DNA from: Propioniciclava sp.
GTDB lineage: Bacteria > Actinomycetota > Actinomycetes > Propionibacteriales > Propionibacteriaceae
Length of the DNA stretch: 24,000 bases
NCBI GenBank assembly: GCA_047973325.1
Contig: JBKEBU010000152.1
Span: 6,744 to 30,743 of the forward strand
Reading direction: 5' to 3'
Numbering within the stretch: the first letter of the stretch is position 1; the number at the start of each line of letters is the position of its first letter. The position numbers and the translations under genes are program-made. This document shows positions 3,174-24,000 of the stretch, piece by piece. Under the pieces are notes generated by a model. It did not search any database. It worked only from the letters and a program-made list of their open reading frames with translations, and was not told where the DNA came from.

Positions 3174-3180
3174 GGATCAA

Positions 3181-5975: not shown

Positions 5976-5976
<1 letters not shown>
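5524..5976 (-). CDS. ebgC: EbgC-like beta-galactosidase beta subunit (YhcH/YjgK/YiaL family, DUF386)
   Basis: Track ORF 5524..6237 trimmed to MLWFPTVEALRAELG (ATG at 5976..5974), which overlaps the GH2 stop as TGATG. 150 aa. SVGAAVTYRVTDQPDRPELTGHQRYLDVRVVLAGSLELEVA and GRMVVIRVTVE align with the E. coli EbgC segments I recall (SIGDSLTYRVET...FTGHRRYFEVHYYLQG, VKKVVLKVTIE). Confidence 0.75.
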
Positions 5977-9817
<3,841 letters not shown>

Positions 9818-9829
9818 ATTCCCACGCCT

Positions 9830-9885
9830 GGCTCGGCCTCCCACCAGCAAGCTTGCACCGCGCTGTCCCGGCCGGGCACCGAGCC
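9830..9885. terminator. Nested palindromes in a convergent intergenic gap (possible bidirectional terminator)
   Basis: Outer arms GGCTCGG (9830..9836) and CCGAGCC (9879..9885) enclose two perfect 10-nt palindromes, GCAAGCTTGC (9847..9856) and CCCGGCCGGG (9867..9876). There is no U-tract. Confidence 0.3.
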
Positions 9886-9894
9886 GCGAGTGGC

Positions 9895-11487
9895 TTACCT
9901 GCGTGAGCGCTTGAGCAGGCCCATCAGGGTGCGGGTTACTTCCCGGGCGGCGGTGCGGGCCATTTGACGCACCATGGTGTTCTTCGTCAGCGCTTCCACG
10001 AGAGAATCATCACGACTCCGGGGGGTCGACCGGGTGCGCTGCGGAGCCGATGGTTCCGCAGCGGCCGATGGCCTGCGGGCCGACTGCTGCTCTCGCTCCG
10101 CAGTGGCCTCAGCAGCTTGCGCGTTCGCCTCCAGCCGGGCGGTCAGCAGTTCGTAGGCCGACTCCCGATCGATCTCGGTGCCGTACTTGTGCTGCATCTG
10201 CGAGGCCGCCACCCCCGCCGCCATAGTTTCGGCAGCCAGCGGATCCATCGAGGCTTCCGGAGCCCGCATCCGAGTCCAGGCCACCGGTGTCGGGGCTCCC
10301 TTGGGGTTGAGGACGGTGACCACGGCCTCGCCGATACCCAGCTGCTGGAGCAGCTGGGCCAGGTCATAGTCGCTCGTGGGGTAGGTGTTCACCGTTGCCT
10401 TCAACGCCTTGGCGTCATTGGGAGTGTGCGCCCGCAACTGATGCTGCACCCGGGACCCCAGCTGAGCGAGCACCGCATCCGGGACATCTGTCGGAGCCTG
10501 GGTGACGAAAAAGACGCCGACACCCTTGGAGCGGATCAGGCGCACCGTCTGCTCGATCGAGGACATGAACGCCTTGGAGGCATCGGCAAAGAGCAAGTGG
10601 GCTTCGTCGAAGAAGAAGACCAGCTTGGGCTTGTCCAGATCGCCCGCCTCAGGCAACTCCTGATACAGATCCGCGAGCAGCCACATCAGGAACGTCGAAA
10701 ACAAGGCTGGCCGATCCTGCAGATTCGGAAGCTCCAGCAAGGAAATCAAACCCAGGCCAGCATCGGTAACCTTGAGCAGATCGGCGGTCTCGAACTCGGG
10801 GTCCCCAAAGAACTCCTCACCTCCCTGAGCGGCCAGCGCCGCAATCTCCCGCAGAATCACGCCGGCGGTGGACTTCGCCAGCCCGCCGATGTCGGCGAGC
10901 TCAGCCTTGCCCTCGTCGGAGGTGAGGAACTTGAGCACCTGGGTGAGGTCCTCCAGGTCGAGCAGGAGCAGCCCGTTGGTATCGGCGTAGTGAAAGACCA
11001 GCGACAGGGAGGATTCCTGGGTCTCATTGAGGCCCAGCACCTTGCTGAGCAGCAGCGGCCCGAACGAGCTCACGGTCGTCCGCAGCGGTACTCCGGTGCC
11101 CTGCCCACCGAGCGCATAGAACTCGACCGGGCAGGCCGCCGGGGTGAAGGCCTGCCCGATCCCTTCGGTGCGTTCCAGCAGCTTGGGTGAGGGTTCCCCG
11201 GGGATCGCCAAACCGGAGAGATCCCCCTTGATATCGGCCGCGAACACCGGCACGCCGGCCTTACTTATCTGCTCGGCCATCAGCTGGAGGGTCTTCGTCT
11301 TGCCGGTTCCAGTAGCCCCGGCGACCAGCCCGTGCCGGTTGAGCATGGACAGCGAAATTCGGATCGTCACCTCAGGCTGTGGTCCGGCCTCATCCACCAG
11401 GACGCCCAACTCGACTGAGTCCTCCTCGAAGGTGTACCCCGCCTGGATGGCTGCCGTCATCGTCGAATCCTGCCTCTCACTCGCCAT
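9895..11487 (-). CDS. DUF853 / HerA-like P-loop ATPase (YjgR family)
   Basis: Track ORF 9895..11892 trimmed to [18 protein letters not shown] (ATG at 11487). An alternative ATG at 11460 is preceded by GGCAGGA. Walker A: [19 protein letters not shown]. Walker B-like: [25 protein letters not shown] is present. The basic C-terminal tail is typical of YjgR-like proteins (E. coli YjgR begins ...[21 protein letters not shown] as I recall). Confidence 0.8.
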   Translation of the reverse strand: [530 protein letters not shown]

Positions 11488-11553
11488 GGGCCCCACCCTA
11501 ACCCCGAACGCGGACAGGCCGCCGCCGCGGCGGAAACCCCACCTGGGTGGCAT

Positions 11554-11568
11554 TAGACTGAGCCCGTG
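11554..11568 (+). promoter_or_regulatory. Candidate -10 element placed for a leaderless transcript
   Basis: TAGACT (11554..11559) is followed by 6 nt (gagccc) and then the GTG start at 11566. No SD is present. This geometry is typical of leaderless actinobacterial mRNAs. A perfect 12-nt palindrome CCGCCGCGGCGG lies at 11522..11533. Confidence 0.35.
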
Positions 11569-11871
11569 ATCTTCAAGCGCGTCGGGGACGAACGCCCCTA
11601 CCCCGACCACGGCTATCAGCATCGCGACTGGGCCGCGATCGCCCCGCAACAGGTCCGCCTCGACCAGTTGGTGACCACCAAGCGGCTCCTGGATTTGGAA
11701 GCGCTGCTGGAGGAAGATTCCACGTTCTACGGCGACTTGTTCGCGCACGTGGTCGCGTGGGGCGGGGACCTCTATCTTGAGGACGGCCTGCACCGCGCCT
11801 TGCGAGCTGCGCTGCAGCAGCGCGCCTCCCTGCACGCCCGCGTCCTCGAGCTGGTAGCGGCACAGGTCTGA
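11566..11871 (+). CDS. Small conserved hypothetical protein, possible ParB/sulfiredoxin-fold (DGxHR-like motif)
   Basis: 101 aa with strong GC3 codon bias. The motif GDLYLEDGLHRALRAALQQ resembles the DGHHR core of ParB/Srx-fold proteins. It sits immediately upstream of a LytR_C gene, a pairing I recall (unverified) from M. tuberculosis Rv0430/Rv0431. Confidence 0.55.
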   Translation: MIFKRVGDERPYPDHGYQHRDWAAIAPQQVRLDQLVTTKRLLDLEALLEEDSTFYGDLFAHVVAWGGDLYLEDGLHRALRAALQQRASLHARVLELVAAQV

Positions 11872-11882
11872 GGAGAGTGCGC

Positions 11883-12407
11883 ATGGACCCACAAACGGTA
11901 CTTCGGGCGGTCAAGACACCGGCCACGCTCATTGTCTTACTGCTGTTCGTGTACTGGGTGGCACAGTGGTCCTTCAAAGCGGCCACAGATCCCATGCCGT
12001 CCGCACCACCAGATCCCTGTGTGGTCAAGGAAATCGGAGATCAGCTCACGCCCCAGCATGTTTACGTCCGGGTTTTCAACGGGACCGAGGTCAGTGGATT
12101 GGCCAAGCGGTTAGCGGCCACCCTCCGCGCCGATGGATTCAACGTTTACAAGACCACTAATACAGATGAGCCGAATAGTGAGACCTCCGTTGTCGTGGGC
12201 TACGCCGAGGACAGCCCCGAAGTCATTCTGGTACGCCAGGCTTTCTCCGACATTGCTTTCCGCGCCGACAACCGCCCCGACCGGACTGTGGACGTGATCA
12301 TCGGCACTGAAGGGCCCAATCCGATCAACCAGCCGGATTTCAATGCTCCCTTGGCCGATGGCACAGCCTGCGTCCCGCAACTCACGCTGGTCGATAGCGA
12401 AGAGTAG
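11883..12407 (+). CDS. LytR_C (LytR cell-envelope-related C-terminal) domain membrane protein
   Basis: N-terminal TM segment (TPATLIVLLLFVYWVAQW), then VRVFNGTEVSGLAKRLAATLRADGFNVYKTTN...VVVGY...VDVIIG, which is typical of LytR_C. Start moved to the ATG at 11883 (AGGAGAG at 11871..11877); the track gives GTG at 11877. No LCP catalytic domain is present. Confidence 0.75.
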   Translation: MDPQTVLRAVKTPATLIVLLLFVYWVAQWSFKAATDPMPSAPPDPCVVKEIGDQLTPQHVYVRVFNGTEVSGLAKRLAATLRADGFNVYKTTNTDEPNSETSVVVGYAEDSPEVILVRQAFSDIAFRADNRPDRTVDVIIGTEGPNPINQPDFNAPLADGTACVPQLTLVDSEE

Positions 12408-12477
12408 TCAACGACTAAGGGCGAAGCCACCGACGCTCCAGCGGAGGTGAAACGCCACTTGGACCAGACGCTACGGC

Positions 12478-12507
12478 TTGCAGGAGGTTCGCCCTGTGTT
12501 TTACAGT
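12478..12507 (+). promoter_or_regulatory. Candidate sigma70-type promoter for the first CWB2 gene
   Basis: TTGCAG (12478..12483), an 18-nt spacer, then TACAGT (12502..12507). This would give a leader of about 100 nt before the ATG at 12613. Confidence 0.3.
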
Positions 12508-12612
12508 GGTCCCACGTACCAATGATCGAACTCGTGCTGCCTCCTTGCGAAGCGCCCGAGGGTGGTCGGGGGTGCTGAGATTCTCACCCGAATAAGTAGG
12601 AGGTTTGCTCGT

Positions 12613-13887
12613 ATGGGCAAGAATTTGCTTCGTGGGGCCGTGGCCGTTGCTGCGGCCGCCGCGCTTGCGGTGCCGGTGGCCGGTGTGGCCAATGCGGCGC
12701 TGATTGACCCGGATCCGAACTGGAACATTCAGCCCGTGGCTGGTCCGGGTGTCTACCGGATCGCTGATAAGGACCGGATTGCTACCGCCATTGAGGCCTC
12801 GCAGACCCGTGACGACTGGGGCTTCAAGAGCACCCGCCTCGTCTGGAAGTGCGATGACACCACCCGCCCGCTGCACAACAACCCGGCCCAGGGCTCCTGG
12901 GTGGCCGGCAATACCGTTCAGGTACCCACCGCGTCTGTTGGCGGACTGAGCACCTGCACCGCCACTGTGGTGAACAACTGGAGCGTGCGGCATATCCTCG
13001 TCGCTCGCGCTGACGACTACTCCGATGCGCTCGCGGCGACCACGCTGGCCGACGTGACCAACGCACCGGTCCTGCTCAACCCGACCGCTGAGCTCGACCC
13101 GCGCAACCGGGCCGAGATTGCCCGCCTCGCCGCTGGCCAGAACTGGACGTCGGTGAGCCTCCTCGGTGGCACCAACGCTCTGTCGCACACTGTCGAGAAC
13201 GCCATCAACGCGATTCCCGGCGTGAACGTGACCTTCCGTCACCAGGGCATCGACCGCTACGAGACCGCCGTTGAGATCTCGAAGATCTCCATCCTGTTCT
13301 TCGGGGGCATCCTGGCCAACGACGAGGTCAACGTGTACCTCACCACCGGTGTTGACTTCGCCGATGCGCTGGCCGCCGGAACCTCCGCTGCCCAGAACGA
13401 CGGCGTCGTGCTGCTCACCAAGGGCGACGAGCTTGACCGTCGTGGCTTCACCGAGAACTTCCTGATCGATCTCCAGGATCTGGTTATCGATGAGGCTCCC
13501 TTCGTGAGCTTCAACACCTCGGAGATTTTCGCGGTGGGTGGCCCGGCGGTGCGTGCCGCTCGTACCTATGACATCCGCGTGGCTGATGAGTACCTCGGCG
13601 CTGACCGCTACGAGACCGCCGTTCTGGCCGCTCGTGGCACCTTCGGCAACCCGAAGCACTTCGCGGTGACGTCGGGTCTCAACTACCCGGATGCGGTTGT
13701 GGCCTCGTCCTACATCGCCAACGCTGACGGCCCGCTGCTGCTCAGCAAGCCCAACACCCTCACCCCGGTGACCGCTGGTTACCTGGCTGACAAGGTGGAG
13801 AACGGCGACTCGGTGATCACGTTCGGTGGCACCGACACCCTCACCAACGCGGTCACCAACCAGATCGCGGAGCTGTTCAACTACTGA
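12613..13887 (+). CDS. Secreted cell-wall-binding protein consisting of three CWB2 (PF04122-type) repeats
   Basis: Start set at MGKNLLRGAVAVAAAAALAVPVAGVANA (signal peptide), with a perfect AGGAGG (12598..12603) 9 nt upstream; the track gives GTG at 12562. Three repeat units carry the CWB2 signature: DRIATAIEAS...ADDYSDALAATTLADVTNAPVLL, then IDRYETAVEISK...GVDFADALAAGTSAAQNDGVVLLT, then ADRYETAVLAA...GLNYPDAVVASSYIANADGPLLLS. Each ends in a (L/F)GG(T/P) segment. Confidence 0.85.
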   Translation: MGKNLLRGAVAVAAAAALAVPVAGVANAALIDPDPNWNIQPVAGPGVYRIADKDRIATAIEASQTRDDWGFKSTRLVWKCDDTTRPLHNNPAQGSWVAGNTVQVPTASVGGLSTCTATVVNNWSVRHILVARADDYSDALAATTLADVTNAPVLLNPTAELDPRNRAEIARLAAGQNWTSVSLLGGTNALSHTVENAINAIPGVNVTFRHQGIDRYETAVEISKISILFFGGILANDEVNVYLTTGVDFADALAAGTSAAQNDGVVLLTKGDELDRRGFTENFLIDLQDLVIDEAPFVSFNTSEIFAVGGPAVRAARTYDIRVADEYLGADRYETAVLAARGTFGNPKHFAVTSGLNYPDAVVASSYIANADGPLLLSKPNTLTPVTAGYLADKVENGDSVITFGGTDTLTNAVTNQIAELFNY

Positions 13888-13966
13888 TCAATCCGGCACC
13901 GGCTACCGGTGACTGATTGACCAACCTGAGGTGCCCTCGCCATCCTGGCGGGGGCACTTCTGTGTT
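13888..13966 (+). terminator. Tandem hairpins; the second is a strong intrinsic terminator
   Basis: Hairpin 1: TCAATC-cgg-CACCGG-cta-CCGGTG-act-GATTGA (13888..13920). Hairpin 2: GTGCCCTCGCC (13931..13941), loop atcct, GGCGGGGGCAC (13947..13957). That is 11 bp (10 Watson-Crick plus 1 G-U), followed by TTCTGTGTT (13958..13966). Confidence 0.75.
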
Positions 13967-14085
13967 CCCGGCCACGATCCTCGGGCGCATCCCCCACTAT
14001 GCTCACCGGAGGGGCTCAGCGAAGGGCGCCCCCTGGCAACCCCCGGAGCTGCACGCGAGGTGGTGGGGGAGGAGGGACCCGTTCG

Positions 14086-16062
14086 GTGGAGTGGCTGATA
14101 GCGGTGCCGCCAGCGACCCTGCTGGCTGCAGCCGTGCTCCTACCCGGTTGGGTGGTGCTCTGGCTCCTGGGTTGGCGCGGTGTCCGCGCCGTGACCCTGG
14201 CACCGGCAGTCTCGCTGGGGATCACCGGCCTGGCCGCCCTGACAAGCACCGTGCTCGGCTGGTCCTGGGGGTGGTTGTCCTTGGTGGGAACCGCCGCGCT
14301 GAGCGCCATCGCAGCCAAGAGCATCTCCTGGGTTGCTCGTCGGGAATCACCCGACACCAGCGCCACCGACAGCTGGCGGGGCCCACTGGCCGCCACATCC
14401 GTGGTCACGATCATCGGTGGCATCGTGCTGTGGGTGCGGCATCTCACCAACGTGCTGCCGAACCCGGACAGCTACTCGCAGTCCTACGACAATGTCTTCC
14501 ACCTGAACACTATCCAGTTCATTGCCGACACCCGGAATCCGGGCCCGTTCCTGCCCGTCAATCTGGATTCCCACGCAACGACGAGCTTCTTCTATCCCAC
14601 TGAATGGCACGATCTGGTCGCACTCGCGCTGCCCCTGGCGGGGAACAATAGCGCCCTGGCCAGCACCAGCATGCTGTTGGTCACCTGTGCGATCATGTGG
14701 CCGCTCTCCATCCTGGAGCTCTGTCTCACGCTCGGAGTGCGGCAGCCAGCCGCGGTGTTGTCGGTCGGGGTGCTCGCAGCCAGCTTTCCGGCGTTCCCGT
14801 TCCTTCTGCTCGAGCATGGGGTGCTTTACCCCAACCTGCTCTCCTACGCCACGGTGCCGGCCTCCCTGGCCCTGGTGATTGCCCTATTCCGGACCGGGCC
14901 GATAGCCCTGGCGATCGGGGTGCGCCTCGGGTTCCCGCTGCTACTCACTCTGATAGGTCTAGCGCTCGCCCACCCCAACGGCATCTTCGTCACCGCCGCC
15001 CTGGCACTTCCGGTGCTCGCCGCCGGGGTCGTCACGACCTTCGGTCGCCTTCGATCAGCCGAGGTGTCCCGACGCCAAGCCAGTGCCTGGCTGTCCTTAC
15101 TGGCCGTGGGCCTGCTGCTGTTCGTTACTGCCTGGATGGTTTTGCGACCCACCAAGCGTCAAGTCCCCCCCTTGGATATCGGTAGTGCCCTCGAGGCGGC
15201 GGCACTGGCGGCCACCAATGTGGGACCCGGCAACTCTCCCCCGGGACCGCCGGCAGTGGTACCGGCGTTGCTGACGGCTGCCGGGATAGTGCTGCTCCTT
15301 CTCCGCCCGGGGTGGCGATGGTACGTCGGCTCAGTCGGCGTCGGAGTGCTGCTCTGGGTGGCTGCGGCCGGTCTTCCGGAATCATTGGCCCGCGAAGCGC
15401 TCGTCGGCATCTGGTACTCCGACCTCAAGCGCCTGGGATCTGTGGTGGCCATCGTGTCGATTCCAGCCGCCGCCGTCGCGGTGGAGGTGCTGGCTGGCGG
15501 CATTCGGAGAATCCGATGGAAGTCTCCCTGGGCGGGGTTACTGGTGGCAGTTCTCCTCCCGGCCACCTTGCTGGCCGGCACCCAGGGGAACACCGCGCTG
15601 AATTTCGCTGTCAATCGTGCCCGGCAGACGTATACCTTCGCCACCGAACCATGCTCAGCGGGCTACCTCTTCTGCCTCAACACTACCGATGAGTACGCGC
15701 TGCTCACCGAACTGGCAGACCTCACCCCGCCCGACGCTGTCATTCTTGCTGAACCCCGGACCGGGGCCAGCCTCGCCTACGCCTTCGCCCACCGCCGAGT
15801 GTTGCGCCCCTATGTGGGCACCGAGCCCTCGGCTGCCGAGCGGGTCCTCCTGGAGACCCTTGATGAACCCGGCCCTAGCCAGGAGCTCTGTGCGGCGCTG
15901 GCAGCCACCGGGGTGACCCACGTGTTGGACTTCGGCTCGCAAGCCCTCGACAGCAGCAATCTGACATATCCCGGGCTGGATGCACTCCCGACGGCCGAGT
16001 CCGTGACCGTGGTGGCAGTCCGCGGCGAGAAGCGACTCTATTCAATAACCGCCTGCAGGTGA
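14086..16062 (+). CDS. Large polytopic membrane protein, GT-C-like (possibly DUF6541 family), with a C-terminal extracytoplasmic domain
   Basis: At least 13 hydrophobic segments followed by a soluble tail of about 150 aa. A loop motif SYDNVFHLNTIQFIADTRNP...FYPTEWHDL follows TM4. Start placed at GTG 14086 (VEWLIAVPP), with GGAGGAGGG ending 9 nt upstream; the track ATG at 13999 adds an Arg/Gly-rich 29 aa. The family assignment is from memory only. Confidence 0.5.
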   Translation: MEWLIAVPPATLLAAAVLLPGWVVLWLLGWRGVRAVTLAPAVSLGITGLAALTSTVLGWSWGWLSLVGTAALSAIAAKSISWVARRESPDTSATDSWRGPLAATSVVTIIGGIVLWVRHLTNVLPNPDSYSQSYDNVFHLNTIQFIADTRNPGPFLPVNLDSHATTSFFYPTEWHDLVALALPLAGNNSALASTSMLLVTCAIMWPLSILELCLTLGVRQPAAVLSVGVLAASFPAFPFLLLEHGVLYPNLLSYATVPASLALVIALFRTGPIALAIGVRLGFPLLLTLIGLALAHPNGIFVTAALALPVLAAGVVTTFGRLRSAEVSRRQASAWLSLLAVGLLLFVTAWMVLRPTKRQVPPLDIGSALEAAALAATNVGPGNSPPGPPAVVPALLTAAGIVLLLLRPGWRWYVGSVGVGVLLWVAAAGLPESLAREALVGIWYSDLKRLGSVVAIVSIPAAAVAVEVLAGGIRRIRWKSPWAGLLVAVLLPATLLAGTQGNTALNFAVNRARQTYTFATEPCSAGYLFCLNTTDEYALLTELADLTPPDAVILAEPRTGASLAYAFAHRRVLRPYVGTEPSAAERVLLETLDEPGPSQELCAALAATGVTHVLDFGSQALDSSNLTYPGLDALPTAESVTVVAVRGEKRLYSITACR

Positions 16063-16086
16063 CCCCGCCAGGTACCACACTCGGAT

Positions 16087-16431
16087 CTACCGGCCATGGC
16101 CATAGCGGCGCTCTGCATCCAAGAGAGCCACCCGGCGGGCGAGCTGATGCAGAGTGCGCCGGTTGGATTGAGCGCGGGTGTACTGGGTGAGGGCATAGAC
16201 GACAAAGGCGGCGGTCACGGCATAGAGCAGCAGATCGGCTCCACGGCCAATCCCCAGCCAGCCCGCGACCTGGGTCGTCACCGCCGGCCAGAGCACGCTG
16301 ATGACCGCCACCAAGGCCAGCACGAGAATGCCTATCTTCTTGAGTGCGCTGATCACGGTTCCGCGCTGCCGCGCCACAAACCAGATCACCCAGGCGATCA
16401 CCAGGATAACCAGCAGCTGAATCCACATCAT
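16087..16431 (-). CDS. DUF2304-family small membrane protein (GT2-associated)
   Basis: 114 aa. Three hydrophobic helices plus a basic C-terminal helix (NRRTLHQLARRVALLDAERRY). ATGA overlap with the upstream GT2 gene (16428..16431). This is the pairing I know for DUF2304. Confidence 0.7.
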   Translation of the reverse strand: MMWIQLLVILVIAWVIWFVARQRGTVISALKKIGILVLALVAVISVLWPAVTTQVAGWLGIGRGADLLLYAVTAAFVVYALTQYTRAQSNRRTLHQLARRVALLDAERRYGHGR

Positions 16432-17147
16432 CGGCTGAATCTCCGCAACACTACATCGAAAGCAATGTTGACAGCATTGATGGTCTGCTGCCCCTTCGTC
16501 CGACTGTAGGCGGTGTACTGAACCTGGACCGGGACCTCGATATAGCTATATCGCTGACGGCGGATGATCTCCAGGAACTCCGAGGCGTGGCCCATATCCG
16601 GAATGGTGAGGTGGATCGCGTCGGCGACCGCCTTGGTGAAAACCCGTAGCCCGTTGTGCGTATCGGTCAACTTCACTCCCGAGGTGATATTGCTGAAAAT
16701 TACCGCGGCCCTCAGCAGGAGCCGTTTTGATAGGGGCACAGCCAACGGCCGACCATCCAGAAATCGCGACCCCAACGCGAAGTCCGTGCCAGCGCTCTCG
16801 ATAGCATCCACCAACGCTTCCAGGTCTGCCACCCGATGCTGACCATCAGCATCAAAGGTAGCCACGTAGCGGATTCCAGGCAGCGAGCGCGCGAACTCGA
16901 TCCCGGTTTGGAGCGCCGCCCCTTGCCCCATGTTGATCGGATGCTCAATGTGAAAGGCGCTGGTGACGGCCAGTTCGGCAGCGGAGTCATCGGTGCTGCA
17001 ATCGTTCACGCAAATTATGGTGGCGAAGCGCTCGGCCACATCGTGAACCACGTGCCGCACTACCCTGGCCTCGTTGAAGACCGGAATCACTACGGCCACA
17101 TCGCTGCGCGGAGACGCGACGGGCGCCAGGTCTGTAGTTTCCGACAC
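16428..17147 (-). CDS. Family 2 glycosyltransferase, polyprenyl-phosphate sugar synthase type (GtrB/DPM1-like), with no TM segments
   Basis: 239 aa. VAVVIPVFNEARVV, CVNDCSTDDS, DADGQH (DXD region) and GSRF. It ends without the C-terminal TM helices found in GtrB. Confidence 0.85.
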   Translation of the reverse strand: MSETTDLAPVASPRSDVAVVIPVFNEARVVRHVVHDVAERFATIICVNDCSTDDSAAELAVTSAFHIEHPINMGQGAALQTGIEFARSLPGIRYVATFDADGQHRVADLEALVDAIESAGTDFALGSRFLDGRPLAVPLSKRLLLRAAVIFSNITSGVKLTDTHNGLRVFTKAVADAIHLTIPDMGHASEFLEIIRRQRYSYIEVPVQVQYTAYSRTKGQQTINAVNIAFDVVLRRFSR

Positions 17148-17299
17148 ATGGTCAGGCTATCTCGTCCGGTGCTCGACGGGATCCAGGCCATCCAGCGCTG
17201 CGCACTGTGGAATGGGCTCGGGGGCTCCCCGCTGACACATTGGTCAAATCTCTACCATCGGAACCCTGGACTGCTAGGGTGAAGGCGGAGAGCCACCCG

Positions 17300-17313
17300 C
17301 GCAACCTGTTGCG
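17300..17313. promoter_or_regulatory. 14-bp perfect palindrome upstream of the second CWB2 gene
   Basis: CGCAAC-CT-GTTGCG at 17300..17313, about 40 nt before the ATG at 17355, in the divergent GT2/CWB2 intergenic region. The 2-nt centre is too short for an RNA loop, which favours a protein-binding site. Confidence 0.25.
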
Positions 17314-17354
17314 GCGTTTCCCCCATTGGATTGTTCGAGAAAGCCGAGGATGCA

Positions 17355-18605
17355 ATGCAGTTCCGTAGCAAAGTCGCTGTGATAGCGACCTCCCTTCTAT
17401 CAACGGCAGTCGCCGCAGCTGGGCTCGCCGCGTCACCGGCAGCCGCTGCAGACGTCGTCACCCAACGCATCGGCGGCGTCGATAGGTACGACACCAGCGT
17501 GCGTCTGACCCAGGACGCCTTCCCGCGGGGGGCCAAAACCGTCTTCATCGCCAGCGGCGAGGAATTCGCCGACGCCATCAGCGCCGGCACCGCCGCCGCA
17601 CAGATCGGCAGCCCGGTCCTGCTCACCCGCTCCGGCGCGCTCCCTAGCGGGGTGCGCGCAGAGATCAAACGCCTCAATCCAGATTCCATTGTCATCGTGG
17701 GCGGCACCGCCCGAATCTCAGCTGCGGTCGAGACAGCGCTCCAAGATCAGGCCTCATCGGTGAGCCGGATAGCAGGGGCGGATCGCTACCTCACTGCCGC
17801 AGCAGTGTCAAAGAAGTACTTCAAGAAAACTCCCACATCGCACACCTTTGTTGCGTCCGGCGAGAACTTCGCCGACGCGCTGAGCGCCTCCTCTGCCTCC
17901 AAGCGGCTCGGGGCCCCCGTCCTGCTCACCAAGCCGACCTCCCTCCCTGCTGCGACTGCAGCCGAGTTGGAACGGCTGGATGCCGAACGTCTGTTCGTGG
18001 TGGGCAGCACGCAGGCCATCAACGGCGCCACCTACAAGGCTATCCAGGAGTACATCTCCTTCCGGACCTATCGGCTGAATGGCGCCAACCGCTACGAGAC
18101 CTCAGCAGCGGTATCCCAGGCGTCCTTCAACTCCGCCGACACCGTATACCTAGCCACTGGCGCCAACTTCGCCGACGCCCTGTCTGCGGTCCCCGCAGCC
18201 GGCGGCCGAGGCCCGGTTCTGCTGGTGGGCAAGTCGAACCTAACCACGCAGGTGTGTCAGGAGGTCTACCGACTCAAGCCCAAGCGCATAGTCACGATCG
18301 GTGGCACCGCCGCCATCGAAGATACGGTGGCCGACTTCATCGCCACCAAGTGCGTCAATGGCGAAGCGGAGCCCGCACCGACAACGGCCCCGACCACCAC
18401 GCCGAAGCCGACCCCCACCAGCCCCAGCGTTCCGGTTGCAAGTGGAGATACCCCGCCGGACACCGAGATCACCTGCTCGATGTTCCCCACCCAGCCGCAG
18501 GCTCAGCAGTACTACGACTACTGGGTGCGGAAGGGCTTCGGCGATCATTTCAGGCTCGATCCAGATGGGGATGGAACCGCGTGTGAGGATCGTCCCCGGG
18601 CATAG
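17355..18605 (+). CDS. Secreted CWB2x3 cell-wall-binding protein with Pro/Thr linker and C-terminal Excalibur Ca-binding domain
   Basis: Signal peptide MQFRSKVAVIATSLLSTAVAAAGLAASPAAAAD; the ATG at 17355 follows GAGGA, while the track gives TTG at 17331. Three canonical CWB2 units: RIGGVDRYDTSV...GEEFADAISAGTAAAQIGSPVLLT, then RIAGADRYLTAA...GENFADALSASSASKRLGAPVLLT, then LNGANRYETSAA...GANFADALSAVPAAGGRGPVLLV. Linker: EPAPTTAPTTTPKPTPTSPSVP. The tail C..F......QQYYDYW......LDPDGDGTACE matches the Excalibur DxDxDGxxCE signature. Confidence 0.88.
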   Translation: MQFRSKVAVIATSLLSTAVAAAGLAASPAAAADVVTQRIGGVDRYDTSVRLTQDAFPRGAKTVFIASGEEFADAISAGTAAAQIGSPVLLTRSGALPSGVRAEIKRLNPDSIVIVGGTARISAAVETALQDQASSVSRIAGADRYLTAAAVSKKYFKKTPTSHTFVASGENFADALSASSASKRLGAPVLLTKPTSLPAATAAELERLDAERLFVVGSTQAINGATYKAIQEYISFRTYRLNGANRYETSAAVSQASFNSADTVYLATGANFADALSAVPAAGGRGPVLLVGKSNLTTQVCQEVYRLKPKRIVTIGGTAAIEDTVADFIATKCVNGEAEPAPTTAPTTTPKPTPTSPSVPVASGDTPPDTEITCSMFPTQPQAQQYYDYWVRKGFGDHFRLDPDGDGTACEDRPRA

Positions 18606-19821
18606 CCGGGAGTCAGGTCCGGCTCGGGCGCTGATCGCATCACGGATCTATGCGCCCGAGCCGGGTGCTGCGCCACTCCGGCTGGCGGCCCTGCACCGGG
18701 CCCTAGACCGCGTCGGCCTGGTAACCGACGTTCTCACCAGCACCCCTGGTCACCATGCCCCGGCCAGCACTGCCGGGCTCGACCCGTTCCCCGGCAGGAT
18801 GCGGCGGTGGCCGGTGATCCGCAATACCGACGGCTACCTGCGGGGATATCTGGGCTACCTGTCCTTCGACATCCCTCTTTTTTTCAGGCTTCTGGCCTCC
18901 CGCCGGCCCGCGGTATTGGTGGTCGAGCCACCCCCCACCACGGGGCTCGTGGGCTTGATAGGCGCGCGACTGCGCCGGGTTCCCTTCGTCTACTACGCCC
19001 CCGATATCTGGTCAGTAGCGTCACAAAGCGCCGGATCACCGGCCTGGGTCACCCAGGCACTGCGTGCTATGGAAACCATGGTGTGGCGGCAGGCAGATGC
19101 GATCCTCACGGTGTTTCCCGAGCTCGCCGCGAGGATCACCGAGGCCGCACCCACGGCACACGTCCACGTGGTGGGTCACGGGGCGGATCTGCAGACCTTT
19201 ACGCCCGAGGGCCCCACGCAGATCCTCGACCATCCCTACCTGGTCTACGCCGGCACCGCCTCCGAGGTGCACGGCGCTCGAATCTTCATGGAGGCACTCC
19301 CTCAGGTCCTCACCCAAGTCCCGCATGCCCGGGTGGTGGTCATCGGCCACGGTGAGGAACGGCCAGTCATGGAACGCCTTGCCCGCAAGCTTCCACCGGG
19401 CACCGTCACCTTCCTGCCCCGGCTCTCCCCCCAGGAGACCGCTGCCTGGATCCGAGGTTCCCGAGCTACGCTCGCCAGTGTCCGGCCGGGACCTTACGGC
19501 TTTGCGCTCGCCACCAAGGTCTATGCCTCGGTGGGCTGCGGCGTACCCGTGGTCTATGTTGGTGAGGGTGAGGGTGACGATCTGGTCAGCGGACATGATC
19601 TGGGCTGGGTTGCCCCCTACCAGACTGCGGCTACCGCCACCCAGATGGTCACCGCGTTGACCACCGAGATCAGTCAGCCGCGGCGAGAACAGCTCCGAGC
19701 CTGGGCCCAAACATCAGGCTCACTCGACGCTGCGGCCGACCGGGGCGCCGAGGTGATCACCCACCTGCTCGCACCCGGGGCAACCCCCGGTGTTCGCCCG
19801 TCCGAGGGCCGACACCAGTGA
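18583..19821 (+). CDS. GT-B glycosyltransferase, family 4-like (WcaI/WbuB-like)
   Basis: Track ORF 18301..19821 is over-extended through the CWB2 gene. A plausible start is GTG 18583 (VRIVPGHS...ALIASRIYAPEPGAAP), overlapping the upstream gene by 23 nt; ATG 18565 and 18571 are alternatives. The C-terminal half is typical of GT-B (YAGTASEVHGARIF, VVVIGHGEE, FALATKVYASVGCGVPVVYVGEG). Confidence 0.75.
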   Translation: MRIVPGHSRESGPARALIASRIYAPEPGAAPLRLAALHRALDRVGLVTDVLTSTPGHHAPASTAGLDPFPGRMRRWPVIRNTDGYLRGYLGYLSFDIPLFFRLLASRRPAVLVVEPPPTTGLVGLIGARLRRVPFVYYAPDIWSVASQSAGSPAWVTQALRAMETMVWRQADAILTVFPELAARITEAAPTAHVHVVGHGADLQTFTPEGPTQILDHPYLVYAGTASEVHGARIFMEALPQVLTQVPHARVVVIGHGEERPVMERLARKLPPGTVTFLPRLSPQETAAWIRGSRATLASVRPGPYGFALATKVYASVGCGVPVVYVGEGEGDDLVSGHDLGWVAPYQTAATATQMVTALTTEISQPRREQLRAWAQTSGSLDAAADRGAEVITHLLAPGATPGVRPSEGRHQ

Positions 19822-20936
19822 CCCACCCCGAGGCGCGCGTCCTCCACATCAATGACGCAGCCTTCACCACCACGGTGCTCATGGCCGAGGCTCGCCGTCG
19901 GGGTCTGCCCTGGCGCTACCTCCCGTTGGCGAGCCTTGAGGGGCACTGGAAGGGCCTCCATCGCGTCGTCCGTCGAGGTCTGCGGGGTGCCCGTTGGGAA
20001 GCTGGCCTGGCTCGGCTCGCCACCACCACCGATGTCCTCCACGTGCACGTCGCCAGCGTGGCCCGCCACACCGCGTGGGTACCTCGACGCTATGTGCTGC
20101 ATCTGCACGGCACCGACATCCGTTCCCACCAATACGATCCACGCTATCGATCCCAGGTTCGCCGTGCTCTTCAGGGTGCGGCCGCAGTGCTGTACTCAAC
20201 CCCAGACCTGGCTCCGCATATACCCGAGGGCATCGAGGCCACCCTGTTCCCGGTCCCGCTCGACACCGCAGCCCTACCCGCATGGACCCCACACCCGCAA
20301 CCCCGAGTGGTGTTTTCGTCCCGATGGGATGATGTCAAAGGCGCCACCGTCCAACTAGCTGTGGCCCGGCTGCTACACAGCGCCTTCGGCAAGCGGGTGG
20401 AGTTGGTGGGCGTGGATTGGGGCCCCCTCGCCGACGAAGCTCGCCGGGCTGGTGTTCTGCTCCTGCCTCGTTCGAGCCACGACGAGTACGTGCGGTTGCT
20501 GGCCTCGGCCCACGTGGTCGTGGGACAACCAACCGGGATGCTCGCGGCTAGCGAACTGGAAGCCCTGGGCATCGGGGTTCCCACGGTCACACCCATCCAC
20601 ACAGCCTGGTACCAGCAGGCGGGTGCCCCGCTGCCACCCGTGCTCGGCGGGACCGACCTGGATATATTCCGCCTCCCCCCGCAAGATCCGAACCAGGGGG
20701 ACCCTCCCTTGACCCAGGCTGAGGTCACCGCATTGGCCAAGGCCATCACTGCCACGGTGGCGTTGGCCCTGGACGACCCCGCTGCCGCTGTGCCACCCGC
20801 CACCGGAGCGAATCTGACTTCCCCGCAGACCTGGACCGTCCCCGAACATTGGGTTGCCCAACAGCACGGGGCCGCCGTATCGGTCGACAAGTTAGTACCG
20901 CTGTACCGTCGCCTTATTCACGGACGCGAGAACTAG
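19818..20936 (+). CDS. Divergent GT-B-fold glycosyltransferase-like protein
   Basis: 372 aa. GTGA start/stop overlap with the upstream GT. VLHINDAAF, LHLHGTDIR and the C-terminal-domain motif MLAASELEALGIGVPTV (E..EA...G.P). A Pro-rich segment of about 100 aa follows. Confidence 0.55.
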   Translation: MTHPEARVLHINDAAFTTTVLMAEARRRGLPWRYLPLASLEGHWKGLHRVVRRGLRGARWEAGLARLATTTDVLHVHVASVARHTAWVPRRYVLHLHGTDIRSHQYDPRYRSQVRRALQGAAAVLYSTPDLAPHIPEGIEATLFPVPLDTAALPAWTPHPQPRVVFSSRWDDVKGATVQLAVARLLHSAFGKRVELVGVDWGPLADEARRAGVLLLPRSSHDEYVRLLASAHVVVGQPTGMLAASELEALGIGVPTVTPIHTAWYQQAGAPLPPVLGGTDLDIFRLPPQDPNQGDPPLTQAEVTALAKAITATVALALDDPAAAVPPATGANLTSPQTWTVPEHWVAQQHGAAVSVDKLVPLYRRLIHGREN

Positions 20937-20938
20937 AT

Positions 20939-22039
20939 ATGCGTGTGCTCGTCGTCACTATCACCCACCCCCCTGTCGACGCTCGGATCTATCACCGGCA
21001 GATCGGGGCGCTCGTCGAGGCGGGCCACGACGTGACCTACGCCGCACCCTTCACCGCCTTCGGGCAGTCCCCACCCAACCTGCTGCGCACGGTGAATTTG
21101 CCCCGTTCGAGTGGGAACATCCTGCGTCGGATTCCAGCCATCCTGGCAGCTGCTCGCCTGATCCGGCACGAGCGCACCCGGCAGGATCTCATCTTGGTTC
21201 ACGATCCGGAGCTGTTGGCGGCGCTCGCGCTAGCTCAGCCGAACCCAAACCGAGGTCCGGTGCTGGTGTGGGATGTGCACGAGGATGTTCCTGCGCAGGC
21301 CGCCATGTTGCGCCTGCCCTCTGGGATACAACTCATGATCTCCCGGATACTCCGCGGCGTGGAACTGATAGCCGAACGCCGGGTTCGGCTATTGCTGGCT
21401 GAAGCTGGTTACCGGGACAACTTCCGCGAGGGGCATCCAGTGGTCCCCAACTCGGTCAGGGTCCCCCCGGGCGACCGCATGCCGGCTGAAACCACCCCGC
21501 GCGTGATCTATGTGGGCGCACTCACCTGGGCCCGCGGCGCTCGCGAGCTGATCACGGTCGCGGGCCAGATTCCCGAAGCAAAGTTCGAGATCATCGGCAA
21601 TGCACCACCCGACGTTGCTGCAGCCCTCACCGAGGCTGCCTCCGCCAGCAACATTGACTATCGCGGCTTCGTGCCGAACGACCAGGCCCTCACCCGGCTA
21701 CCAGGCGCCCTGGTCGGGCTAAGCCTGCTCCACGACCAGCCCAACTACGCCCACTCCCAGCCAACCAAGGTGATGGAGTACATGGCGCATGGATTGCCGA
21801 CGGTAACCACTCCCAACCCAGCCTCCGCGCAGCTCGTGCGCACAACCGATGCTGGGATCGTGGTCCCGTTCGGCGATGTCCCCGCGATGGTCGAGGCGAT
21901 CCGGCAGCTGATGGCCGATCTCCCGGAACGGGATCGGCTCGCCGCCAATGCCCACGCCGCCGCCCGGGAGCACGACTGGAATGTGGACGGACCGGCGTTC
22001 TCCGCGCTATTAGAGCAGTGGGTTCGCGGTCGTGACTGA
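20939..22039 (+). CDS. GT-B glycosyltransferase, family 4-like
   Basis: Track ORF trimmed to MRVLVVTITHPPVDARIYHRQ (ATG at 20939, 2 nt after the upstream stop). VHDPELL, IYVGALTWARGAREL, FEIIGNAP and SQPTKVMEYMAHGLPTVTT. Confidence 0.8.
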   Translation: MRVLVVTITHPPVDARIYHRQIGALVEAGHDVTYAAPFTAFGQSPPNLLRTVNLPRSSGNILRRIPAILAAARLIRHERTRQDLILVHDPELLAALALAQPNPNRGPVLVWDVHEDVPAQAAMLRLPSGIQLMISRILRGVELIAERRVRLLLAEAGYRDNFREGHPVVPNSVRVPPGDRMPAETTPRVIYVGALTWARGARELITVAGQIPEAKFEIIGNAPPDVAAALTEAASASNIDYRGFVPNDQALTRLPGALVGLSLLHDQPNYAHSQPTKVMEYMAHGLPTVTTPNPASAQLVRTTDAGIVVPFGDVPAMVEAIRQLMADLPERDRLAANAHAAAREHDWNVDGPAFSALLEQWVRGRD

Positions 22040-23510
22040 GCCGCCCGCCCGGGTGGCCCGGGACGCTGCCTGGAGCACGGTGGGCGTGCTGTTCTCCGGC
22101 GGCACTCAATTCTTGACGTCATTGCTGGTGGCCCGTCTCGGTGGACCGGCACTGCTGGGCATCCTCCGCGGTTCGTTGTCGTTGGCCAACCTCGCCACGC
22201 TGCTGTGGCCCTCCACCGCAGGCCCTGCAGCCAGTCTGTTCCTGGCCCGCGAGCGAGCTGCCGCCCGGGAGGAGGCAGCTCGGGGTGCCGCCCGGCACCT
22301 GGCACTCACCAGCATCGGGGTAGCGATTCTGCTGGCACCGGTCGCCGCCTGGTTATCGGTGGTGCTTTTCGGATTGTCCTGGGTGGACGCCGCCTGGGTC
22401 GCGGCCCTGACGGTTGCCCTCTCGGCCTACCACCTGGCCAGGGGACTCCGCTTCGGTGCCGGCCAGGTGCGTCGAGCCGCGACCTGGGAGATCATCTGTT
22501 CCGGCGTGGCCATCATGCTGCTGGTCGGGGTACTGATGGCGGGGTGGGCAGGGTGGATTCTGGCGCCATTGGTCGCCGGTAACCTGCTCTACTCCGCAGG
22601 TGCTTGGCTAGCCGTCTTCCGCGGACCAGCCAGCACGAGCGCCGAACAGCTGCGAGAGATCCACGCATTCGTGAGCTGGGGGGTGGCCGGGACCGTGGCC
22701 TCCGCCGGTCTGATGCAGCTGTCGATGATCCTGGCCAAAACCCAGAGCGATGATGTCGTCGCCGGGTTCTATGCGGCTGCGATCTCGCTGGCAACACCAC
22801 TGTCCATGGTGGCCCGGGCAGTCTCGATGGCCATCTTTCCGGAGATGGCCAGACAGCGGGGCCGCAACGAACCGGCCGCGACCCGGGCCACCACCGACCG
22901 CGCCACCCGCGGTCTGGTCGCCCTGATGACGCCCCTTTTTTGCGCACTCATTCTGGTGGCGGATCCCCTGGTGGCGCTGGTCTACGGTCCCGGCTTCGCG
23001 GGGGCGATTCTCCCACTCCGGGTGCTGTTGGTCGCCGTATGGCTGCTGGTGCTACCGGTACCCTCGGTCAACGCCATCAACGTGGCCGGACCAGCGGGAA
23101 TCCGGCTATCGGCGCTGCTGTCGTGGGCGGGGTTGCTGGTCGGGCTCACCTCGATGGCGGTGTGGTCGCTCACAGCGGGAATTGTCGGCATCGCGGCTGG
23201 ATATCTGGCGGGTGTCGCCACCACCTCGATCAGCAGCTTCGGCTATGTCTGGCACCGAGATCGGCAACCCTGGGGACGCATTGTTGGATGGGCCACCGCC
23301 CTGATGACCATCACCGTGGCCGCAGCCGCGTGGTTCCGCGATCCGCTGACCCAGCCGGGGCTGGCGCTAGCGGCGGGCGTGGGAATTCTGCTGCTCGCCG
23401 CGGCCGCCCTACGACTGCTCCTGCCTGACCTGAGCCGCAGCCTGCTGGCGCTGAGCAGCCCCCGCCGCCCAGCCGACGCCCCCACCACCGCCGAGCACCA
23501 GGACGACTGA
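22032..23510 (+). CDS. MOP-superfamily polysaccharide flippase (Wzx-like)
   Basis: 492 aa with about 14 hydrophobic helices. The N-terminus ARDAAWSTVGVLFSGGTQFLTSLLVARLLGP is typical of polysaccharide biosynthesis/export (Wzx) proteins. GTG start overlaps the upstream GT gene by 8 nt. Confidence 0.65.
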   Translation: MTEPPARVARDAAWSTVGVLFSGGTQFLTSLLVARLGGPALLGILRGSLSLANLATLLWPSTAGPAASLFLARERAAAREEAARGAARHLALTSIGVAILLAPVAAWLSVVLFGLSWVDAAWVAALTVALSAYHLARGLRFGAGQVRRAATWEIICSGVAIMLLVGVLMAGWAGWILAPLVAGNLLYSAGAWLAVFRGPASTSAEQLREIHAFVSWGVAGTVASAGLMQLSMILAKTQSDDVVAGFYAAAISLATPLSMVARAVSMAIFPEMARQRGRNEPAATRATTDRATRGLVALMTPLFCALILVADPLVALVYGPGFAGAILPLRVLLVAVWLLVLPVPSVNAINVAGPAGIRLSALLSWAGLLVGLTSMAVWSLTAGIVGIAAGYLAGVATTSISSFGYVWHRDRQPWGRIVGWATALMTITVAAAAWFRDPLTQPGLALAAGVGILLLAAAALRLLLPDLSRSLLALSSPRRPADAPTTAEHQDD

Positions 23511-23512
23511 CG

Positions 23513-24000
23513 ATGACGCAGGGTCCCATAATTGCCACTCAGGCGCCTCGGCTCGTCAGTCTCGACTGGGCCCGGGGCTGGTTGCTCGTCATCACCATTG
23601 CTGTGAATTCAGCCCTCGTGACCCCGCCCTGGCTCAAGCATGCTGTCTGGGATACGGTGATGCCCGTCGACCTTGTCTTCCCCGCATTCGTCACGCTCTC
23701 CGGGTGCAGCATCGCCTTTGCCCTGTCGCGTCGGGTGCAGGTGGGCTCCGCTGCCCGCCGGGTCATCGTGCTGTTCGCCCTGGGATTGCTCTACAACGCA
23801 ATGATGAGCCGATCCTTCGACTGGGCCACCCTGCGGATCACCGGTGTGCTGCAGTTGTATGCAGTCTTGGTCGCTGGCATGAGCCTCGCGCATCTGATCA
23901 CCCGGACGTGGCGCGGCTGGGCACTGATCACCGTTGGCGTCACCGTGACGCATAGCATCGTGCTGGCCTCCTCCGCCCAGCACTGCCCGACAGGCACGCT
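23513..24000 (+). CDS. Membrane acyltransferase-like protein (HGSNAT/DUF1624-type), N-terminal ~162 aa. Continues past the window end.
   Basis: My own translation from the ATG at 23513 gives MTQGPIIATQAPRLVSLDWARGWLLVITIAVNSALVTPPWLKHAVWDTVMPVDLVFPAFVTLSGCSIAFAL... The pattern R..SLD..RG......I.VN followed by D.VFP.F.F..G is what I associate with this family. The frame is open to the window edge, so it is not in the ORF track. Confidence 0.5.
   Translation, partial: MTQGPIIATQAPRLVSLDWARGWLLVITIAVNSALVTPPWLKHAVWDTVMPVDLVFPAFVTLSGCSIAFALSRRVQVGSAARRVIVLFALGLLYNAMMSRSFDWATLRITGVLQLYAVLVAGMSLAHLITRTWRGWALITVGVTVTHSIVLASSAQHCPTGT

Follow-up and report, generated by a model that had tools for sequence, protein, structure and literature searches.

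In Clostridioides difficile, the CWB2 proteins of the Cwp/SlpA type are anchored to the anionic polymer PSII, and the AP locus lies beside the cwp/slpA cluster; the PILL motif of CWB2 is needed for this anchoring (PMC4973711). We have analysed a stretch of 24,000 nt (hereafter the window) from a metagenome-assembled genome (MAG) of Propioniciclava sp. (family Propionibacteriaceae, order Propionibacteriales), in which two genes for CWB2-only proteins, named here CWB2-A and CWB2-B, are embedded in a glycopolymer locus. By analogy, the locus looks like a high-GC counterpart of the wall-polymer and anchor system of C. difficile. We consider it moderately probable that it makes a secondary wall polymer, that it includes a module of three components for decorating the side chains of this polymer, and that its two CWB2-only proteins are dedicated to binding it. 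That the locus encodes a wall glycopolymer, as the first-pass annotation of this DNA had proposed, is very likely from its gene content and from the genes for LytR_cpsA_psr (LCP) proteins and acidic sugars in related loci. For the anchoring system of C. difficile, Usenik et al. 2017 is reportedly a source alongside Willing et al. 2015. In the literature searched, the ligand of CWB2 is defined only in C. difficile, and experimental studies of CWB2 from high-GC bacteria were not found; a 2018 review mentions CWB2 domains in Actinobacteria, especially in Micrococcales, and names no ligand.

The Cwp/PSII system of C. difficile is the closest described system. Both organisms have a CWB2 pseudo-trimer of three repeats with a PxLL motif, and in both the genes of wall-binding proteins adjoin a locus with glycosyltransferases (GTs) and a MviN/MOP-type flippase, where only a part of the CWB2 genes of the genome is clustered. 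However, the two belong to different phyla and the enzymes differ, those of Propioniciclava being three GT4 proteins, a PpgS-like GT2 with a DUF2304 protein, and a DUF6541 protein of the GT-C type. PSII consists of phosphodiester-linked hexasaccharides whereas the Propioniciclava polymer is probably of the uronic-acid type. In Propioniciclava, the CWB2-only genes are within the biosynthetic operon, a PpgS-type decoration module is present, and there is neither an effector or lattice domain nor SecA2, Cwp84 or any S-layer component.

A second comparison is offered by the SLH proteins of Bacillus anthracis and Paenibacillus alvei, which depend on a polymer pyruvylated by way of csaB. There, too, a pseudo-trimer of three repeats binds a wall polymer non-covalently, as the CWB2 proteins studied here would do by analogy, and anchor and polymer genes evolve together. 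The anchor fold is SLH in these organisms and CWB2 in Propioniciclava, whose locus contains no pyruvyltransferase.

Overall organization of the locus

Domain calls are based on Pfam and NCBIfam profiles, and structures are AlphaFold (AF2) models searched with Foldseek against the PDB. The features of the locus are the following.

11877–12407, + strand: LytR_C-only protein (Pfam LytR_C, E 9e-17) with one N-terminal transmembrane-like segment
12613–13887, + strand: CWB2-B (PF04122 three times, E 8e-36, 122.9 bits)
13999–16062, + strand: DUF6541 membrane protein (PF20176, E 4e-130)
16087–16431, − strand: DUF2304 protein (PF10066, E 1e-19)
16428–17147, − strand: GT2, PpgS-like (PF00535, E 6e-21)
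17148–17354: divergent intergenic region of 207 nt between the GT2/DUF2304 operon and the operon led by CWB2-A
17355–18605, + strand: CWB2-A (PF04122 three times, E 2e-51, 172.7 bits)
18565–19821, + strand: GT4a (Glyco_trans_1_4, E 3e-13; Glyco_transf_4, E 2e-6)
19818–20936, + strand: GT4-like protein (no Pfam match of its own; aligned to GT4 by hhalign)
20939–22039, + strand: GT4b (Glyco_trans_1_4, E 2e-16; Glycos_transf_1, E 8e-14)
22032–23510, + strand: MOP flippase (Polysacc_synt_3, E 9e-13; Polysacc_synt, E 9e-10; MurJ, E 2e-8)
23513–24000, + strand: HGSNAT/NagX-like acetyltransferase (HGSNAT_cat, E 9e-5), the gene running past the window end

CWB2-A, the DUF6541 protein and the GT4-like protein show 100% identity to proteins that a Propioniciclava sp. 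MAG encodes on a 31.3-kb contig. From CWB2-A onward, the genes overlap or abut. All candidate starts of GT4a (18565, 18571 and 18583) are located 5' of the CWB2-A stop codon and the downstream genes continue in the same close spacing, so that CWB2-A is the first gene of the GT/flippase operon. A scan of the window for promoters and terminators gave nothing above shuffled sequences, with no sigma-70-like site in 17148–17354, and an Rfam scan of the window gave no match. The GT2 and DUF2304 pair, the MOP flippase and the acyltransferase of the first-pass annotation all find their counterparts in these domain matches; the joining of the pair with the GT-C protein into one module, described below, was not part of it.

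Structure of CWB2-A and CWB2-B

Three CW_binding_2 stretches are present in each of the two proteins, and their scores are far above the Pfam gathering cut-off for PF04122 (24.9 bits). The prediction had been two proteins, each with a signal peptide and a CWB2 triplet, and their coordinates and identities hold. By inspection, both N-termini are Sec-type signal peptides with a positively charged n-region, a hydrophobic core and an AxA site: MQFRSKVAVIATSLLSTAVAAAGLAASPAAA followed by AD in CWB2-A (17355–17447) and MGKNLLRGAVAVAAAAALAVPVAGVANA followed by AL in CWB2-B (12613–12696). The repeats of CWB2-A span 17457–17747, 17757–18050 and 18063–18353. Those of CWB2-B span approximately 12751–13221, 13231–13578 and 13585–13884, the first being split by a conserved insertion of ~60 amino acids (~12808–12993). 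The motifs R-x-x-G-x-D-R-Y-x-T and P-V/L-L-L are conserved in the CWB2 repeats. The P-[ILV]-[ILV]-[ILV] motif reads PVLL in all three repeats of CWB2-A, and PVLL, GVVLL and PLLL in those of CWB2-B.

A PDB sequence search with CWB2-A retrieves Cwp6 (E 1e-38), Cwp8 (E 3e-25) and the high-molecular-weight subunit of SlpA. The AF2 model of CWB2-A, built on 40 homologues, has a predicted local distance difference test score (pLDDT) of 88, with low values in the first 30 residues. In Foldseek, it superimposes on Cwp6 with a root-mean-square deviation of 2.1 Å over 305 columns (E 1e-22) and on Cwp8 with 2.4 Å; H subunits of SlpA are also matched and unrelated folds are far behind. The model thus reproduces the pseudo-trimeric (triangular prism) CWB2 fold, which had been anticipated for these proteins.

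The repeats of CWB2-A are followed by a Pro/Thr linker (18354–18470), which is conserved in the orthologues, and by a tail of ~45 residues (18471–18602) ending in RLDPDGDGTACEDRPRA. Residues D388, D397, D404, G405, G407 and C410 of the tail are invariant among orthologues. With 19.3 bits, the tail scores just below the Pfam cut-off of 22 for Excalibur, and its sequence is that of a predicted Excalibur-like calcium-binding domain. The isoelectric point (pI) is 9.3 for the CWB2 part of CWB2-A, which is therefore basic, and 4.55 for mature CWB2-B.

Sequence identity between CWB2-A and CWB2-B is only 30%, as against 53–55% between CWB2-B and its orthologues elsewhere; judging from these identities, the two are old paralogues that have both been kept in the cassette. 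Domain scans show no enzymatic, effector or lattice-forming domain in either protein. Both are CWB2-only proteins of ~40 kDa, and the S-layer-like character that had been suggested for the system is not supported.

Conservation of the CWB2 genes in the cassette

The closest relatives of CWB2-A, with 44–48% identity (44–55% over the orthologues), are found in two groups of related loci, L001–L004 and L005–L008. Both groups hold genes for CWB2-A, GT4a, the GT4-like protein, GT4b and the flippase, followed by two further CWB2 genes, while gene order differs between them. Orthologues of CWB2-B (53–55% identity) directly follow the flippase gene in L001, L005 and L009, and additional CWB2 genes are present inside the cassette in L027, L035 and L119 (L119 and L027 are from the same MAG). 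Taken together, the orthologues of CWB2-A and CWB2-B cover the cassettes of L001–L004, L005–L008 and L009. Adjacency of CWB2 and polymer genes is conserved in L001–L010, L013, L014, L017, L023, L026, L027, L035 and L119 and is not seen in L015, L016, L018–L022, L024, L025 and L029. The synteny is therefore not peculiar to one strain but is conserved across several lineages.

For an estimate that does not start from CWB2, the GT4-like protein was used as a CWB2-neutral marker in a scan of one genome per GTDB species, and the 22 loci obtained were annotated with hidden Markov models. A CWB2 gene is located within 10 kb of the marker in 8 of them, namely L009, L010, L027, four Kineococcus species and Georgenia. 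In contrast, none of 80 metagenome loci anchored on DUF6541 (862 kb in total) contains a CWB2 gene. The difference gives a Fisher p of 1.5e-6, which is a rough guide only as the loci are not phylogenetically independent. A general linkage between CWB2 and DUF6541 was rejected on the basis of the same 80 loci. Embedding of CWB2 genes is restricted to one clade, and the co-occurrence of CWB2 with this GT/flippase set is not a general feature of Actinomycetota, as it does not extend to Arthrobacter, Pseudarthrobacter, Agromyces, several MAG loci or the DUF6541-anchored loci. The CWB2-free loci still carry DUF6541, GT2/DUF2304, GT4 or flippase genes. Since the same enzymes occur without CWB2 genes, the polymer is not made solely for docking CWB2 proteins.

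CWB2 domains are very numerous in Actinomycetota (2346 matches with E≤1e-5 among 8000 candidates scored, one query), where they are fused to peptidases, amidases, glycosidases and other enzymes, and such abundance could by chance place CWB2 genes next to a polysaccharide locus. But CWB2 orthologues occupy conserved cassette positions in several other lineages, in loci that are 44–55% identical and not from near-identical strains, the CWB2-A and GT4a genes overlap, and no CWB2 gene is found in the 862 kb of other wall-polymer loci. The presence of CWB2 in the cassette is therefore not by chance, and co-location of this kind is a most improbable explanation. Conserved operonic synteny makes a functional tie of the CWB2 proteins to the locus a well-supported prediction.

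When eight CWB2 proteins were looked up blind to their context, four (P0006, P0007, P0014 and P0102) turned out to be encoded in glycopolymer loci. P0102 belongs to the Acidimicrobiia genome CP129495.1, in which a region (L033, 1–21539) encodes seven CWB2 proteins interleaved with UDP-sugar dehydrogenase, PMT_2-like GT-C, GT2 and GT4 genes. In six of the seven, CWB2 is combined with an fn3, SpoIID, subtilisin S8, M23 peptidase or GH26-like domain, and one of the proteins is truncated where the locus ends. Here, a second class of actinobacteria shows a cwp-cluster-like arrangement that is independent of the present one.

It is possible, though rather unlikely, that CWB2-A and CWB2-B are co-regulated neighbours of the polymer genes with a different ligand, such as peptidoglycan or another wall polymer encoded elsewhere. 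The only defined CWB2 ligand is PSII of C. difficile (PMC4973711), CWB2-B is acidic, and many actinobacterial CWB2 genes are far from any glycopolymer locus. Moreover, all CWB2 proteins of one cell must share some ligand, which is not necessarily encoded here. On the other side, CWB2 proteins of Firmicutes co-distribute with wall-polymer enzymes, as reported in a 2025 preprint (bioRxiv 10.1101/2025.04.02.646754), and the Acidimicrobiia cluster has brought CWB2 and glycopolymer genes together independently. Two paralogues have also been kept in the cassette across lineages at 44–55% identity, with an operon overlap. That the polymer of the locus is the ligand of both proteins is, by analogy with C. 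difficile, the most economical reading.

Further features of the related loci are recorded here. L001 (12669–14759) contains, inside the cassette, a protein with Rv3811_N, Amidase_2 and CWB2 domains, which ties this locus to the Rv3811 family of Mycobacterium tuberculosis; the literature searched holds nothing that connects Rv3811 with cell wall binding. The little-known PF24346 (CLIPPER_2) domain is repeatedly fused to CWB2 triplets, as in L035 (8459–9841), L119 (2694–4052) and many other actinobacterial proteins. In L009, IS21-type (IstB and integrase) and IS110-type transposase genes (15858–19708) begin ~0.6 kb past the last CWB2 gene, so that the edge of this locus borders mobile elements. 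Three GT4-like paralogues located ~3 kb apart (~9850–16890) are present in L019, L020 and L022, from Arthrobacter, Pseudarthrobacter and a MAG, beside DUF6541 and GT2/DUF2304 genes and with no CWB2 gene within 10 kb.

DUF6541 and the GT2/DUF2304 pair

PpgS (Rv3631), Rv3632 and Rv3779 serve the galactosamine decoration of arabinogalactan in mycobacteria and corynebacteria, and GacI, GacJ and GacL are the corresponding proteins in Streptococcus pyogenes. GacJ and Rv3632, both members of the DUF2304 family, stimulate GacI and PpgS, respectively (bioRxiv 10.1101/180810; PMC9671496). The Propioniciclava locus resembles these systems in that a GT2 of the type of N-acetylhexosamine (HexNAc) synthases overlaps a DUF2304 gene and a GT-C protein is encoded adjacent to it. 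It differs in that the GT-C protein belongs to DUF6541, a family without an assigned function, in that the acceptor is a different polymer, and in that domain scans show no GtrA-type flippase in the window. The flippase is also unidentified in the PpgS/Rv3632/Rv3779 pathway as summarised in PMC9671496, and a GtrA_DPMS_TM gene is present in L001.

The DUF2304 protein has three transmembrane-like segments, and its gene overlaps the stop codon of GT2 by 4 nt. Against the NCBIfam PpgS model (NF058614), which represents polyprenyl-phospho-GalNAc synthase, GT2 gives E 1e-76 and 257 bits, the equivalog cut-off being 370.

The DUF6541 protein, for which the start annotated by NCBI corresponds to 14086, has 13 transmembrane-like segments. 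A PDB sequence search gave no useful match. The AF2 model, built on 39 homologues, has a pLDDT of 92 and a pTM of 0.93, and its 17 best PDB matches in Foldseek are all GT-C enzymes (probability 1.00, TM-score 0.36–0.53), among them STT3, AglB, DPY19, ALG12, ArnT and AftA, which has the best TM-score (0.50–0.53). Below these, the list drops to noise from transporters of the major facilitator superfamily. The model therefore assigns DUF6541 to the GT-C fold, in agreement with the GT-C-like membrane protein of the first-pass annotation. A D-N-V-F-H-L-N motif, encoded from 14488 onward, opens the first long loop helix of the model and is predicted to face outwards; its D135 and H139 are invariant in the 39 homologues.

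From the families of GT2 and DUF2304 and the GT-C fold of the adjacent protein, the three appear to form a single decoration module of the PpgS/Rv3632/Rv3779 type. Among the 80 DUF6541-anchored loci, 19 are informative, with flanks of 5 kb or more on each side, and in 15 of these a DUF2304 gene is located within 10 kb of DUF6541; it is paired with a strongly PpgS-like GT2 in 7 of the 15. DUF6541 is hence genetically linked to GT2/DUF2304 pairs as well as placed in the GT-C fold, and the PpgS-type decoration of wall polymers would be extended beyond the mycolata. Side-chain decoration systems are usually exchangeable accessories. The module here behaves as one, since in L005 and L118 the neighbour of the CWB2-A gene is a GtrC-type PF19528 protein instead of DUF6541, and L001 lacks the entire GT2/DUF2304/DUF6541 module. 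A GtrC-type PF19528 protein adjoins GT2 as well in L005 and L008.

The GT-C protein could instead place a lipid-linked glycan or monosaccharide on the CWB2 proteins themselves, for instance on the Pro/Thr linker of CWB2-A, as in the slg loci of S-layer glycoproteins. In Foldseek, STT3 and AglB, which are oligosaccharyltransferases, and DPY19 indeed give the best E-values for DUF6541 (the match to Pmt4 is weak, E 0.13), the linker is conserved in CWB2-A orthologues, and glycan genes here adjoin genes of secreted proteins. However, the best TM-score belongs to the wall arabinosyltransferase AftA, the association of DUF6541 with DUF2304 argues for a monosaccharide donor, and in Microbacterium DUF6541 sits with LCP, ABC-transporter and rhamnose genes. 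CWB2-B lacks a Pro/Thr linker, neither DUF6541 nor GT2/DUF2304 is present in L001 although it has retained CWB2-A together with the linker, and CWB2 is absent from all of the DUF6541-anchored loci. Protein glycosylation is thus very unlikely to be the function of the locus, and decoration of the wall polymer is the preferred role of the module.

The Microbacterium locus (L031) is a wall-polysaccharide locus with LCP, ABC-transporter, RmlA/B, many GT2 genes and DUF6541. A 687-residue protein without a Pfam match (18133–20196, − strand) adjoins a second GT2/DUF2304 pair in it and may represent another unrecognised GT-C family.

GT4 enzymes, flippase and acetyltransferase

Three GT-B glycosyltransferases had been proposed for this region. 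Two of them, GT4a and GT4b, are clear GT4 enzymes, and GT4b shows weak similarity to TuaC and EpsE in NCBIfam. The case is weaker for the third (19818–20936), which has no sequence match in Pfam, NCBIfam or the PDB. Its C-terminal half aligns in register with GT4 in hhalign (probability 69.5%, E 4e-5), and among its 130 homologues some carry PF13439 or PF13579 or are named GT4. We therefore accept it as a putative divergent GT4-like enzyme; a non-GT identity (pyruvyl- or phosphotransferase) was dropped in view of the hhalign match and the GT4 homologues.

The MOP flippase has 12 transmembrane-like segments, and its gene overlaps GT4b by 8 nt. The acetyltransferase, cut by the window end, matches HGSNAT_cat with 22.5 bits against a cut-off of 22 and NagX with E 2e-4; homologues are present in L009, L014 and L027.

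The flippase agrees with the Wzx-type pathway that had been suggested, whereas other components of such a pathway were not found in the window. Domain scans show no Wzy, priming (phosphoglycosyl)transferase or chain-length regulator among the genes of 11.9–24 kb or in L001 and L005, and neither Wzy nor a chain-length regulator is visible in L009. GC3-based gene calling yielded no Wzy candidate; an open reading frame that it gave in L009 (2659–4188) was discarded, having no Pfam match and no membrane segments. The source contig runs ~7 kb past the window, and Wzy, the priming transferase and the chain-length regulator may be encoded elsewhere. The combination of GT4 and GT2 enzymes with a Wzx-like flippase is shared with the tua locus of Bacillus subtilis and other Wzx/Wzy pathways, as are the weak TuaC and TuaG similarities and, in the loci of relatives, a UDP-sugar dehydrogenase indicative of an acidic polymer. 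Unlike tua, in which CWB2 is absent, the window shows no TuaE-like or Wzy polymerase, priming transferase or chain-length regulator.

Probable polymer chemistry and wall linkage

Genes for nucleotide sugars are found in the related loci. In L001, a UDP-sugar dehydrogenase, a GFO/IDH/MocA oxidoreductase, a DegT aminotransferase and a hexapeptide acetyltransferase adjoin GT4a. The Georgenia locus (L026) has the dehydrogenase, the oxidoreductase and the aminotransferase together with a UDP-GlcNAc 2-epimerase, while L009 carries the UDP-sugar dehydrogenase and the GFO/IDH/MocA oxidoreductase, and L005 the UDP-sugar dehydrogenase. Such a gene set presumably follows the WbpA/B/E/D/I pathway and makes UDP-2,3-diacetamido-2,3-dideoxy-glucuronic or -mannuronic acid. 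The wall polysaccharide of Cutibacterium acnes, a member of the same family as Propioniciclava, contains 2,3-diacetamido-2,3-dideoxy-mannuronic acid and GalNAc (PMC6598116; cf. PMC3848858). On the basis of these genes, the polymer of the relatives probably contains 2,3-diacetamido-2,3-dideoxy-hexuronic acid and would hence be acidic.

LCP genes are present in L013, L035 and L119, and LCP flanks the locus in Kineococcus. This suggests that the product of the locus is a peptidoglycan-linked acidic polymer of the teichuronic-acid type; since the window itself has no LCP or nucleotide-sugar genes, wall linkage and acidity are extrapolated from relatives, and the chemistry of the polymer and its binding by the CWB2 proteins are likewise inferred. 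An acidic polymer would suit a CWB2 anchor as basic as that of CWB2-A.

Proposed mechanism

In the mechanism that we propose, GT4a, the GT4-like protein and GT4b would assemble, at the cytoplasmic side of the membrane, an oligosaccharide carried on polyprenyl phosphate. The MOP flippase would export the lipid-linked oligosaccharide, the HGSNAT-like enzyme would acetylate it across the membrane, and the polymer would be attached to peptidoglycan by an LCP ligase, whose gene belongs to the locus in relatives and was not seen in the window. For decoration, the PpgS-like GT2 and the DUF2304 protein would make a polyprenyl-phosphate monosaccharide of the HexNAc type, which the DUF6541 GT-C protein would move onto the polymer outside the membrane, comparable to PpgS/Rv3632/Rv3779 and GacI/J/L. 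CWB2-A and CWB2-B, presumably co-inherited with the synthesis genes and in the case of CWB2-A also co-transcribed with them, would both bind the polymer non-covalently via their CWB2 pseudo-trimers, as the Cwp proteins of C. difficile bind PSII.

Several observations weigh against this reading. The window contains no LCP catalytic domain, priming transferase, Wzy, chain-length regulator or nucleotide-sugar gene. CWB2-B is acidic overall, and the first conserved Arg is missing from its repeat 3. The match of GT2 to PpgS is under the equivalog cut-off, so that its sugar is not assigned and the enzyme is PpgS-like and no confirmed PpgS. The GT-C TM-scores are modest, and the best E-values, being those of oligosaccharyltransferases, are also compatible with en-bloc transfer. 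No CWB2 gene is located within 10 kb in Arthrobacter, Pseudarthrobacter, two Agromyces species and several MAGs with related enzymes, and the other four of the eight CWB2 genes looked up are in unrelated neighbourhoods.

The CWB2-only proteins might also be assembly factors and not cargo, and serve nascent chains as templates, spacers, caps or tethers, with a possible calcium dependence through the Excalibur-like tail of CWB2-A. Neither protein has an effector domain, their cassette positions are conserved, CWB2-A is translationally coupled, and Wzy and a chain-length regulator are not seen in the window, L001, L005 and L009. We know of no precedent for CWB2 as a polymer assembly factor, and the cassettes of Arthrobacter and Agromyces work without CWB2. 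In some relatives, an enzyme-fused CWB2 protein occupies the same position, for example the Amidase_2-CWB2 protein of L001. The gene at that position in L009 encodes a CWB2 protein of 692 amino acids that is the closest relative by equal similarity to CWB2-A. These points make an assembly role decidedly unlikely. A broader proposal, which we regard as unlikely, is that the CWB2-only proteins are dedicated, co-evolving extracytoplasmic parts of a diacetamido-uronic-acid polymer system, which organise, cap or space the polymer (again possibly with calcium and the Excalibur-like tail) or form a minimal protein coat. If this were true, the role as organiser or coat would be new for the CWB2 module, and the first CWB2 ligand and function would be defined in high-GC Gram-positives.

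Returning to the docking of both proteins on a secondary wall polymer, a concrete candidate for the pathway that makes the ligand of actinobacterial CWB2 can now be named from the locus and its relatives. The two CWB2-only proteins are simple and suited to testing, and Kineococcus and Georgenia are cultivable genera with a CWB2-containing locus. If the binding is confirmed, two Gram-positive phyla would obey one rule, namely that the anchor travels with the polymer.

Flanking regions

The LytR_C-only protein adjoins CWB2-B and is without an LCP catalytic domain. No homologue was found in the related loci at E<1e-5. It is possible that it represents the left edge of the locus, its membership being uncertain. 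The genes at 1–11.9 kb of the window are unrelated to the glycopolymer locus. A HerA-like ATPase gene (9895–11892, − strand; HerA_C, E 2e-190) abuts the left border. Further upstream, a sugar-utilisation cluster (619–9817) encodes a GH63/MGH1-like hydrolase, two ABC permeases, a solute-binding protein, a GH2 beta-galactosidase, a weakly matched DUF386/YhcH-like protein and a divergent GntR/FCD regulator. The GC content of the window ranges from 61 to 69%, with drops to 0.61 near 12–13 kb and 16–17 kb. GC skew is near zero upstream and stays negative (−0.01 to −0.14) over 12001–22000.

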